A stretch of 10,616 bases of DNA from an archaeon (GTDB lineage: Archaea > Iainarchaeota > Iainarchaeia > Iainarchaeales > Iainarchaeaceae): positions 1 to 10,616 of the forward strand of contig JBBSVV010000046.1 of NCBI GenBank assembly GCA_038046625.1. Reading direction: 5' to 3'. The notes below the pieces were generated by a model that was not told the origin of the DNA, searched no databases, and saw only the letters and a list, made by a program, of their open reading frames with translations. Shown in pieces: positions 93 through 10,616 of the stretch (its first letter is position 1; each line of letters opens with the position of its first letter). The translations under genes were made by a program, and so were the position numbers.

Positions 93-117
93 CGCAGCAT
101 AGGCATTTATTGGTGAG

Positions 118-241
118 CCGTGTCTCCATCAAAGCAGCGAAAACCGCCGTAAGGCGGTAAATCCGTCAACGGAAAATGAAGACACCGGGACATGTAATTC
201 AGGTGTGGCTTCATTTTGGGTTGAAAGAGTTGAATTTGTAA
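118..241 (+). promoter_or_regulatory. Structured 5' leader of the ribosomal protein operon (putative cis-regulatory RNA)
   Basis: ACCGCC-GTAA-GGCGGT GNRA hairpin (143-158) and TCCG-TCAA-CGGA hairpin (162-173), enclosed by stem 118-129/176-188. An alternative long hairpin spans 173-217. It lies directly upstream of rpl3, which has no obvious SD. Confidence 0.5.
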
Positions 242-4282: not shown

Positions 4283-5206
4283 ATGATTGAAAGGATTTTT
4301 ATCGAGCAGGGAATGAAAAAGCTTGAGCTGGACAGTTACCTCGCGAAGGAGCTGGACAAAGCAGGTTTCACGAAATCCGAAATCGTGAAGACTCCGTTGG
4401 TAACGAGAATCGTGGTTAATGTCACTAGGCCGGGGCTTGCAATCGGAAAGAGCGGAAGCAATATTGCGCAGCTCACCGAAACAATCGAGAAGCGCTTTAA
4501 GATAGACAACCCGCAGCTTGAGATAAGGGAAATTGAAAAGCCTGAATTAGACGCGCAGGCGGTTGCAAACAAATTGAAGGCGCTTATTGAGCGCGGATTC
4601 TCGTGGAGAAGCGTGGTTTTCAAGACTTTCAGGGACACGCAGGCCGCGGGCGCGCAGGGAATAGAAATTATCGTGAGCGGAAAAATCGCGGGAAAAGGGG
4701 ACAGGAAAAGGGCGCAGAGGATTGCTTGGGGTTACATGAAAAAGGTCGGGGAACAGGCGAAGCTTGTTGATTATGGCGCGACATCGGCACATCCGAAGGT
4801 CGGCGCAATAGGAATCAAAGTCAGGATTGTGAGGCCGGAAACAAAGTTCCCGGACAAAACCAGGATTCAGGATTATGTGAAGAAGATGGAGGAGAACACC
4901 GCGGCACTGGAAGCGGCTGATAAAAAAGCGAAAGAAGCTGCGGAGCCGCCGCAGGCTGCTGCGGAGAGCGCCGAGGAAAAGCCGGAAATGGAAGTTAAAG
5001 CGGAAAAGGGCGGAGAAAAAAAAGCGGAGCCGAAGAAAGAGGCGAGCAAAGCGAGCCAAGTCCCTGCGAAGCACAAGAGCATGCACAAAGAGGAGAAGGG
5101 CGAAAAGAAGGCGGAGAAAAAAGAGGTAAAGGCCGAGGGCGGAGAAAAAAAGGAAATTGTTTCCTTTGGAGAGAAAGCCGATGAAGAAGGGGAAAAGGAG
5201 GAGTGA
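4283..5206 (+). CDS. rps3: 30S ribosomal protein uS3 with about 110-aa low-complexity C-terminal tail
   Basis: MIERIFI start at 4283; the upstream part of ORF 4154 overlaps rpl22 and is spurious. KH motif RPGLAIGKSGSNI, PELDAQ, AGAQGIEIIVSGKI, GAIGIKVRI. Confidence 0.97.
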   Translation: MIERIFIEQGMKKLELDSYLAKELDKAGFTKSEIVKTPLVTRIVVNVTRPGLAIGKSGSNIAQLTETIEKRFKIDNPQLEIREIEKPELDAQAVANKLKALIERGFSWRSVVFKTFRDTQAAGAQGIEIIVSGKIAGKGDRKRAQRIAWGYMKKVGEQAKLVDYGATSAHPKVGAIGIKVRIVRPETKFPDKTRIQDYVKKMEENTAALEAADKKAKEAAEPPQAAAESAEEKPEMEVKAEKGGEKKAEPKKEASKASQVPAKHKSMHKEEKGEKKAEKKEVKAEGGEKKEIVSFGEKADEEGEKEE

Positions 5207-9480: not shown

Positions 9481-10005
9481 ATGGCCGGCAAAAAAACCGA
9501 AGAGAAGAAAGCCGTTGCGAAGAAAGCTGAACCAAAAAAAGACGCTTCTGTGAAAGGCGAGGAAAAAAAGGAAGCGAAGGAACCGAAGAAAAAAAAGGAG
9601 AAGAAATCCAGGAAAGTTGCGGTGAAGAAGAGCAAGGAAGTTTTGGCCTTGAGGCGCAAGGTTCTCTCGAAATCCGGCCTGCCGATTTTCAGGGGAAGCT
9701 TCGGGCAGAGGATTATAAGGAAGAAGAGCATTGCGAAGTGGGACAAGTGGCGCGTGAGAAGGGGCATTGATGTCAAGAACGAGATACAGGACGGCAAGAG
9801 GCCCGGCCAGGGATACAGGAGGCCGAGGGAATTAAGGCACGTGCATCCGAGCGGGTTCCGCGAGTTCGTGGTGCGCACTTTGAATGACGTGAATGCGGTT
9901 CCGAGGGACCACGCAATAAGGATTAAGGCGGGCGTTGGAAAAAAGAAAAGGATTGTTATTGTGGACAAGGCCATTGAAAAGGGAATCAAGGTTTTGAATC
10001 CGTGA
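9481..10005 (+). CDS. rpl32e: 50S ribosomal protein eL32 (divergent) with about 50-aa Lys/Glu-rich N-terminal extension
   Basis: KWRVRRGID, GYRRPRELRHVHPSGFREFVV, AIRIKAGVGKKKRIVI..KAIEKGIKVLNP. Syntenic after rpl6. Confidence 0.93.
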   Translation: MAGKKTEEKKAVAKKAEPKKDASVKGEEKKEAKEPKKKKEKKSRKVAVKKSKEVLALRRKVLSKSGLPIFRGSFGQRIIRKKSIAKWDKWRVRRGIDVKNEIQDGKRPGQGYRRPRELRHVHPSGFREFVVRTLNDVNAVPRDHAIRIKAGVGKKKRIVIVDKAIEKGIKVLNP

Positions 10006-10018
10006 ACGGTGAAATGCG

Positions 10019-10459
10019 ATGAACGACAGGAAAGCAAAGAGAATGGCAGCGGTAATCCTGAAGGTCGGCAAAACGAAAATCTGGGTGAACCCGGAGGAAA
10101 AGGCAAGGCTCAAGGAAGCCATGACGAAGGAAGACATTAGGCAGCTTATCAAGGAAAACATAATTAAGAAGCGCAGGGGGAATCTGCACAGCAGGGGCAA
10201 GGCACGCTTGCTCGCCAAAAAGAAAAGCAAGGGAAGGAAGAGGGGAAAGGGAAAGAGAAAGGGCGGCAAGGCTGTAAGGGTGAATAAGAAGGAGAAGTGG
10301 GTCAAGAACGTGCGGGCGCAGAGGCAGTACCTGAAGGAGCTCAAGGCTTCGGGCGCAAAACTGAGCAGGACGCCGAGGGAAATTTACCTCATGATAAAAG
10401 GCGGATTCTTTAAGGGGAAAAAGTACATGCAGGCAATGGTTGAGGAGGCGAAAAAATGA
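10019..10459 (+). CDS. rpl19e: 50S ribosomal protein eL19
   Basis: KRMAAVILKVGKTKIWVNP, AMTKEDIRQLI, SRGKAR, KGRKRGKGKRKG, KEKWVKNVRAQRQYLKEL, YLMIKGGFFK. Confidence 0.96.
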   Translation: MNDRKAKRMAAVILKVGKTKIWVNPEEKARLKEAMTKEDIRQLIKENIIKKRRGNLHSRGKARLLAKKKSKGRKRGKGKRKGGKAVRVNKKEKWVKNVRAQRQYLKELKASGAKLSRTPREIYLMIKGGFFKGKKYMQAMVEEAKK

Positions 10460-10464
10460 TTTTT

Positions 10465-10616
10465 GCGAGCGAAGCGAGCCAACAGTTTCGGCTGTTGGGT
10501 GCGACGGCTACCTTCGGTAGACAAAGTCCCGCTATGCGGGACCAAGACCCTGCGACCTTGCAGAATCAGAAGATTCTGCGAGGCCTCGTCCCCGCAGGGG
10601 ACAAGGAGCAGGGGCT
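10465..10616 (+). other. Palindrome-rich structured element of unknown class downstream of rpl19e (runs off the window edge)
   Basis: Five consecutive hairpins (10479-10498, 10508-10520, 10526-10542, 10556-10583, 10584-10606), enclosing stem 10548-10553/10608-10613, and GCGAGC-GAA-GCGAGC at 10465-10479. Confidence 0.7.

Follow-up and report, generated by a model that had tools for sequence, protein, structure and literature searches.

A nested palindromic repeat, probably selfish DNA that keeps translational coupling, at a ribosomal protein junction of an Iainarchaeum-like archaeon

The hairpin array that follows rpl19e in a ribosomal protein operon of an Iainarchaeum-like DPANN archaeon is most probably (at about 80%, by our estimate) a copy of a non-autonomous, modular palindromic repeat of the Iainarchaeum family, tolerated there as selfish DNA with translational coupling kept. 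Genome comparisons show that the family is multicopy, lineage-restricted and polymorphic between sister species, and they show mobility in evolutionary time, nesting of units and preservation of the reading frame. The family is apparently undescribed; a literature search that covered titles and the beginnings of abstracts, with few subscription papers among them, returned no account of such repeats in Iainarchaeota.

Genomic context and folding of the hairpin array

The window, that is, the whole stretch of DNA analysed here, is the entire 10,616-nt contig C46 of genome G000 (0.99 Mb in 57 contigs, 85% complete). The contig carries the S10-spc ribosomal protein operon, of which it covers rpl3 to rpl19e; gene names without a profile scan are assigned from the sequence. 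Among the named records returned for the eL19 protein, that of Candidatus Iainarchaeum andersonii (L167; Iainarchaeota, DPANN) is the closest, with 95% identity. As a reference for empty sites, we used G001, a sister genome of the same genus that is ~93% identical to G000. The rpl19e genes of the two differ at 18 of 441 nt, the last 48 nt being identical, and the end of rpl19e in the window contains no foreign tract. The features discussed below are as follows.

10019..10459, plus strand: rpl19e (eL19), a 146-aa open reading frame with Pfam domains PF01280 and PF25476, whose TGA stop overlaps the next ATG
10443..10449, plus strand: GAGGAGG inside the end of rpl19e, 6 nt before the ATG at 10456, a putative Shine-Dalgarno-like motif by its sequence
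10456..10459, plus strand: ATGA overlap, the original rpl18 start and left edge of the insertion according to the G001 alignment
10456..10614, plus strand: reading frame that stays open over 53 codons as far as the contig end, from the list of open reading frames
10465..10479, plus strand: module A, the left end of the host unit (GCGAGC-GAA-GCGAGC, holding the GCGAAGC mini-hairpin), from comparison with other copies
10480..10542, minus strand: inverted nested 63-nt unit (21 codons) between module A and CAAG, from copy comparison
10480..10504, minus strand: family-defining end hairpin (TCG, four letters, a 5-bp stem, an 8-nt loop with CGAAA or CGCAA, stem)
10543..10555, plus strand: left arm of the host middle hairpin, which the 51-nt insert interrupts here and which is unsplit in G001 C23 and C13 and in G000 C48:14708
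10556..10606, strand-symmetric: 51-nt double hairpin (17 codons) with CCTTG/CAAGG ends and a central AGGCCT
10607..10616, plus strand: right arm of the host middle hairpin, then the contig end; its continuation is known from sister copies

An original prediction, made from the letters of the window alone, had described hairpins at 10479–10498, 10508–10520, 10526–10542, 10556–10583 and 10584–10606, a GCGAAGC mini-hairpin at 10469–10475, and arms at 10548–10553/10608–10613 that close a three-way junction. We found every one of these where it had been placed, and the minimum free energy fold reproduced the three-way junction; the prediction had missed the ATG at 10456, the open frame and the nesting of three units. 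It had also named a UUCG loop, which is present but closed by a U-G pair instead of the usual C-G. The element is truncated as described, although the cut is the end of the assembly, the window being a whole contig.

Folding of 10465–10616 is far better than that of shuffled sequence, none of 200 shuffles being as good in any of three settings: as plus-strand RNA (–80.4 kcal/mol, z –6.30), as minus-strand RNA (z –5.20) and as plus-strand DNA (z –7.19). With the element as query, Rfam yielded only four chance matches at E values up to 10, the best at 1.9 and none near its gathering score. The proposed preference for the plus strand holds for the window copy but does not extend to the family, in which one strand folds better in 35 and 37 of 75 copies (G-T 17 versus A-C 10, P 0.25).

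Three nested units behind the rpl19e stop codon

Comparison with other copies shows that the window element consists of three units, a host into which an inverted 63-nt unit and a 51-nt double hairpin are nested. The host unit has the order module A, CAAG with the middle hairpin, and end hairpin, the last being known from sister copies; in the window copy, the host end hairpin, any junction duplication and rpl18 lie beyond the end of C46. Module A is also found in independent inserts at the rpl19e–rpl18 junction of two further genomes, G013 and G021. The 63-nt unit comprises the conserved end hairpin (10480–10504) together with the hairpins at 10508–10520 and 10526–10542, and its boundaries are set by copies in which module A is directly followed by CAAG (G000 C57:6423, G001 C32:4997). 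A near-identical arrangement (90%) occurs at G001 C23:20025–20117, likewise just behind an ATG that overlaps a stop, and the unit folds well as DNA (z –4.9/–4.4). Because the 51-nt unit sits in the loop of the middle hairpin, the three-way junction of 10465–10616 is a product of nesting.

Empty sites in relatives and the missing rpl18

The G001 sequence is identical to that of G000 up to the ATGA at 10456–10459 and then continues into rpl18. The insertion point of the element is thus immediately after the ATGA overlap of rpl19e and rpl18. We fetched 30 of 41 rpl19e matches, which comprise the own locus and 29 relatives. In 20 of the 29, rpl19e and rpl18 overlap by 4 nt, in five the gap is within 13 nt, and in four (L007, L011, L028, L029) the genes are separated by different inserts of 49–136 nt, each of which is a stop-to-start mini-ORF. 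Within the same operon, G000 and G001 have reciprocal filled and empty sites at rpl2–rps19, rpl22–rps3 and rpl14–rpl24, and further filled/empty differences lie in frame in the tails of rpl4, rps3 and rpl32e.

The segment from rpl18 to rpl34e, 4.7 kb long in G001, is absent from G000, where it would lie between C46 and C40. The facing ends of these two contigs both fall within this repeat, and the smallest contig kept in G000 measures 5,050 nt. The segment is missing because it is flanked by repeats in which contigs end; a repeat module is present at 20 of 114 contig ends versus 1.2% of random windows. Profile searches of G000 for rpl18 matched uS11 alone, below the cut-off, with PF00861, and nothing with PF17144. 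Two metagenome scans for the missing right junction and two viral scans gave 0 matches each, and Logan contigs at the locus gave no continuation past 10616. C40 itself starts inside another repeat copy (G000 C40:1–126) just before rpl14e, where G001 has a plain rpl34e–rpl14e overlap.

Copies, modules and distribution of the repeat family

The original prediction had suggested genome-wide BLAST as a means of recognising a repeat. The element has 23 BLAST matches in G000 and 25 in G001, and 17 of 22 family genomes contain it; outside the family, weak matches occur in 2 of 18 more distant genomes. Together with the empty site in the sister genome and many presence/absence differences between G000 and G001, this multiplicity supports the REP/MITE-like insertion, one of the options of the original prediction.

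The end hairpin is the most characteristic module, with 55 pattern matches in G000 and G001 together versus 0–1 in three shuffles. Its exact-type pattern occurs 19 times in G000 and 25 times in G001 and in 17 of 22 family genomes, five being without it, as well as in 3 of 173 other genomes of the order (reversed control, 0). The hairpin has a sharp 3′ boundary, and its loop is conserved while the stems change, with 19 different stem words among 80 matches from all sources. Since perfect pairing was the selection criterion for these matches, the table of end-stem pairs is excluded as evidence of covariation. C-GAA-G mini-hairpins are stable in DNA, and C-GAA-G is the commonest loop (19 copies). 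The modules recombine freely and form ~42 clusters per genome with the motif set of this analysis.

End hairpins stop 2–3 nt from tRNA ends in one set (G001 C14:8960 and C26:21151; G000 C7:24803–24881, C7:33952 and C36:6030) and 1–7 nt from opposite-strand stop codons at five other sites, a spacing that suggests preferred target positions. The tail of uL10 (rplP0) contains an in-frame element in both genomes, made of different modules (G000 C57:6423–6537; G001 C32:4997–5061), and rps19e of G001 (L109:15680–16612) is a 311-aa ORF whose Pfam domain occupies the first 133 residues, with tandem repeat modules in the long tail. In the window, a short module-A remnant stands in frame in the lysine-rich rps3 tail (5042–5070); the equivalent G001 tail has 120 nt more of the element. 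Upstream of rpl3, window positions 107–180 show a small hairpin and then a GTCAACGG word that resembles another G000 repeat family, and positions 122–241 are absent from the G001 alignment. Diverged variants of the end hairpin were seen in two other families (L161 in G033 and L163 in G037), with mini-ORFs at five and two operon junctions, respectively. G000 also harbours at least four further palindromic repeat families (TATAGCA-ended, TATCAAAGGAC-ended, T-rich/A-rich triplex-like and GTCAACGG-ended; examples at C1:13733–13910, C4:9065–9158, C5:27–103 and C41:27111–27279), several of which also begin with CAAC or CACC.

A small double hairpin inside the repeat

At three sites, the 51-nt unit is present in one of the genomes G000 and G001 and cleanly absent from the other, with no duplication; it is mobile by itself. 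Its flanks read A^A in 39 of 41 pairs, and no circularly permuted form was found. The unit also lies inside two unrelated repeat families, the hosts being assigned by eye. It occurs in 30 of 215 genomes of the phylum, two of these matches looking like chance, and its depth is ~18-fold above that of the single-copy part. The two strands fold almost equally (–17.0/–16.9 kcal/mol), which fits DNA better than RNA. A genome of another family (G170; L219) carries 12 double hairpins of the 51-nt type with different stems and no match to the Iainarchaeum end hairpin.

Reading frame and translational coupling

The GAGGAGG motif before the ATG at 10456 also precedes the rpl18 ATG in G001. In the window, the nested inserts of 63 and 51 nt are both whole codons, and the old rpl18 ATG frame stays open; it could be a bridging mini-ORF or else extend uL18 at its N terminus. 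Its peptide resembles those of other copies (ASEASQ start), and the same frame with a stop at or near the next start is found in the copies at G001 C23:20038–20115, G001 C13:6124–6248 and G000 C53:7512–7654.

Such bridging was examined across 620 operon junctions from 22 genomes, 59 of which are widened by at least 45 nt over the median; one junction with Ns and 15 in-frame extensions of the next gene were excluded. Within windows chosen here, a junction was called bridged when it held an ORF with its start –8 to +18 nt from the upstream stop and its end no more than 10 nt from the downstream start. The widened family junctions are bridged in 21 of 25 cases, versus 4.6 with 1 nt removed, 6.6 with 2 nt removed and 6.4 after shuffling. 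A recognised module is present at 10 of the 25, with 9 of these 10 bridged; for widened junctions outside the family, the figure is 8 of 18. Of 16 inserts that fold strongly, 11 are bridged in the given orientation, but reversal still leaves 8 bridged, so the repeats are poor in stops anyway. A harsher null that allows at least one in three per site gives P 0.13 for 16 sites; because it conditions on the observed frame, we rely on the comparison with base removal and shuffling. Inserts of the 51-nt type range from 45 to 57 nt, and their length is divisible by three in 14 of 16 cases in the Iainarchaeum family repeat versus 4 of 16 in other repeats (P 0.001; one false match of 33 dropped). Since copies and genomes are related, these P values overstate the evidence. 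Module A reads in its GCG frame within an open ORF at 23 of its 30 matches, versus 7 for each of the other frames, and at 19 of 24 once six probable chance matches in ordinary genes are left out. Many copies are antisense, beside tRNAs or between convergent genes, and have no mini-ORF.

[quoted passage not shown] An untranslated hairpin block of 150–250 nt would therefore uncouple rpl18, whereas a mini-ORF would not.

Insertion footprint and search for a mobilising enzyme

Duplications at the insertion sites, quoted here for hand-checked sites only, vary in length. They measure ~29 nt at rpl22–rps3 and ~30 nt at rpl14–rpl24 in G001, and 40 nt at C3:38252, ~20 nt at C51:28771 and 7 nt at C3:12157 in G000; at other sites there is none. 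A junction duplicate puts the last codons and the stop of the upstream gene once more before the downstream start. At four sites (G000 C3:38252 and C51:28771, G001 C23:20038 and C43:41509), the copy on the end-hairpin side is closer to the empty allele of the sister genome than the working copy is, the difference at G000 C3:38252 being 0 versus 5 in 40 nt. The foreign look of these working copies suggests that the insertions came from another lineage, one end being precise and the other resolved by homology; on this point rpl14–rpl24 is ambiguous, and two of the four sites lie in more diverged regions.

An enzyme of the kinds proposed in the original prediction (HUH/RAYT/TnpA or GIY-YIG) did not emerge beside the repeat. 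No Y1 transposase gene was found in G000 (85% complete), and 9 of 23 family genomes have one; the Y1 loci fetched, from incomplete genomes, show neither an end hairpin nor a flanking repeat. TnpB scores over the cut-off in 3 of 23 family genomes, neither G000 nor G001 among them, and six loci checked are without the end hairpin, which is thus carried by none of the examined Y1/TnpB loci. The GIY-YIG search gave a single small gene, which stands alone and beside which no module of the repeat family was seen, and the reverse transcriptase profile PF00078 matched in 0 of 23 family genomes (63–95% complete). We considered a Y1 clade as the mobiliser on account of a 15-nt word in common with an end variant and rejected it: the word is part of a variable leader-hairpin arm, and the clade has its own, different ends. 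In the clade sample, which comprises 16 loci from 13 of 151 genomes of the order and one earlier locus, these ends (L135, L136, L137, L185–L199) read ACTGCG-hairpin-CCCGCAG on the left and GGGGTCATAGGGG-loop-CCCCTAT on the right, and a leader hairpin lies over the start. For the Iainarchaeum repeat, the exact ends, the duplication-free small unit, the hairpin-loop targets and the C-GAA-G loops point to an HUH-type single-strand DNA reaction.

Proposed mechanism and rival explanations

Under the selfish DNA reading, ribosomes that finish rpl19e would restart at the ATG at 10456, read through the hairpins and reach rpl18. To judge from other copies, they probably would do so via a second stop–start overlap supplied by a duplicated junction copy; an in-frame extension of uL18 seems an unlikely alternative route. 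Selection would remove copies that break coupling, so that the open frame would act as a survival filter, and the peptide of the mini-ORF itself is probably without function. More tentatively, copies may move as single-stranded DNA, handled by an enzyme of the host or one acting in trans, for which an HUH-type nuclease is the most plausible candidate; the end hairpin would be joined to the target, and homology, short or long, would resolve the opposite side.

Mobility may conceivably have come about with no dedicated enzyme, an option that we regard as doubtful though worth serious weight: in replication or repair errors, a stalled strand would switch to another hairpin copy and return slightly upstream, and the products would spread from lineage to lineage by ordinary recombination. 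The variable or absent duplications, the mosaic modules and tandem expansions, the empty outcome among the enzymes searched and the foreign look, at four sites, of the duplicated copy far from the end hairpin all agree with such a course. The 51-nt unit, however, with its exact ends, regular A^A flanks, lack of duplication and lack of a permuted form, looks like something recognised by an enzyme, as does the end hairpin with its sharp 3′ boundary and constant loop over changing stems. An enzyme-free origin would bear on mobility alone and would leave the frame filter untouched. Going further in the opposite direction, one can picture a two-tier DPANN mobile system with a putative single-strand DNA enzyme, in which a hairpin-joined host lands at the 5′ edge of ribosome-binding regions and carries a replacement gene piece between lineages, while a 45–57 nt unit hops into A^A loop sites of this host and of other repeats, probably as a closed dumbbell, the two together generating translated mini-ORFs and new ribosomal protein tails; taken as a whole, this picture is speculative and rather unlikely.

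The remaining alternatives concern what the element is. A once selfish repeat could have been domesticated and kept at highly expressed junctions, its hairpins or mini-ORF tuning mRNA stability, processing or protein ratio. The neighbours of G001 copies are indeed mostly housekeeping genes (ribosomal proteins, thermosome, TBP, ATP synthase, initiation factor; 50 ORFs scanned, being 48 of 78 neighbouring ORFs and two controls), some junctions carry an insert in G000 as well as in G001, the modules being different in certain cases, and the end loop alternates between GAAA and GCAA, which follow the GNRA rule of RNA loops. Yet sites turn over between genomes that are ~93% identical, the rpl19e–rpl18 junction is empty in 25 of 29 relatives, five family genomes are without the end hairpin, and folding has no strand bias; domestication is therefore improbable. 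The same empty sites largely refute a stand-alone ncRNA or cis-regulatory leader specific to the rpl19e–rpl18 junction, a reading with very little probability left even though the plus strand folds 6 kcal/mol better than the minus strand and the element lies in a ribosomal protein operon. It has no Rfam match and is not syntenic, and each of its modules recurs elsewhere in other combinations, one of them in frame in the uL10 tail. The regulatory or processing RNA and the novel ncRNA put forward in the original prediction are likewise not supported, as the neighbour genes are unrelated and the family as a whole shows no strand bias. An assembly artefact, in which a contig end was glued to a repeat, might be suspected from the way the contig stops inside the element and from the excess of modules at contig ends, and it is the least credible of all these readings. 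Single Logan contigs from three other runs in two studies (X2, X5, X6) run continuously from 9900 through rpl19e and across the element boundary to 10577, with one difference, which refutes a chimera for 9900–10577; moreover, frame and module order match those of sister copies. Positions 10578–10616 are covered by short overlapping pieces only, which leaves some doubt about which variant of the last hairpin is present.

Implications

If the selfish DNA reading is correct, such DNA would persist in the tightest and most expressed operons of a 1-Mb archaeal genome by means of intact stop-to-start frames. The pattern would lend population-level support to translational coupling in DPANN archaea, in which experiments are hardly possible. 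The 51-nt-type unit, with its 45–57 nt, exact ends and A^A target, gives the search for the mobilising enzyme a well-delimited minimal substrate, and it would rank among the smallest mobile units described if the two-tier system were true. The repeat also explains gaps and odd protein tails in these assemblies, such as the missing stretch from rpl18 to rpl34e.

Comparison with known systems

Several established element classes fit the repeat poorly. Compared with classical MITEs, the ends of the host unit are asymmetric, the duplication is variable and no matching IS end was found; a SINE-like retroelement would differ in having a reverse transcriptase, for which PF00078 found no match in the 23 family genomes. 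For a known ncRNA family, there is neither an Rfam match nor a conserved position among the 29 relatives. BIMEs and REPINs are combinations of hairpins, including inverted doublets. With REP/RAYT systems, as characterised in PMC3733652, the repeat shares short imperfect hairpins, their arrangement in mosaics and inverted doublets, a mostly intergenic location and restriction to a lineage. It differs from that description in the absence of a constant GTAG/CGTC stem-foot tag (GTAG in 3 of 80 matches, the four letters varying) and of a repeat-flanked Y1 gene, in the long duplications at some sites and in its archaeal host.

The closest functional parallel appears to be the mycobacterial interspersed repetitive unit (MIRU; Supply et al 1997, as cited in PMC12548453 and PMC3184786), which inserts at a start codon with a coupled ORF. 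Judged by these accounts, both are short, G+C-rich and palindromic, occur in dozens of copies without an enzyme gene and at filled and empty sites, and insert at a start codon within an operon, with an ORF coupled to the upstream gene by a –4 overlap (here the ATGA at 10456–10459). The stop of the MIRU ORF overlaps the downstream start; in the Iainarchaeum repeat, 21 of 25 family junctions are bridged, and the right end of the window copy lies beyond the contig. MIRUs are 40–100 nt long with a 4-nt repeat, whereas the Iainarchaeum repeats measure 60–250 nt with duplications of 0–40 nt, the window copy being over 150 nt long; a sequence link to the mycobacterial family would not be expected. 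Further differences are the archaeal host, the modular nesting and the second element moving inside the Iainarchaeum repeat, as well as a mini-ORF that borrows its start and stop from the host, in contrast to the fixed ones of a MIRU. By this analogy, the window element would seem to work like a MIRU without being one.

The Rickettsia palindromic elements (RPEs; ~150 nt), as described in PMC10969869, are likewise palindromic in-frame inserts in unrelated genes with a recurrent peptide, the counterparts here being the uL10, uS3, uL4 and eL32 tails. Unlike the RPEs of that account, most Iainarchaeum copies are separate junction mini-ORFs, and they are mosaic, with no fixed family consensus. The 51-nt unit in turn resembles SMR-A of Haloquadratum walsbyi as portrayed in PMC3119063: both are archaeal, have inverted terminal repeats, no target duplication and no coding capacity, and target palindromes of other mobile elements (the hosts here being identified by eye) with the mobiliser unknown. 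The two differ in that SMR-A is ~110 nt long, versus 45–57 nt for the two-fold symmetric double hairpin, a comparison made from the description in PMC3119063. By the same account, SMR-A targets PATEs and IS605-type ends, whereas the 51-nt hosts are three local repeat families that match none of the examined Y1/TnpB ends. The element in the window is of a kind already known from bacteria (MIRU, RPE, BIME) and from haloarchaea (SMR-A).
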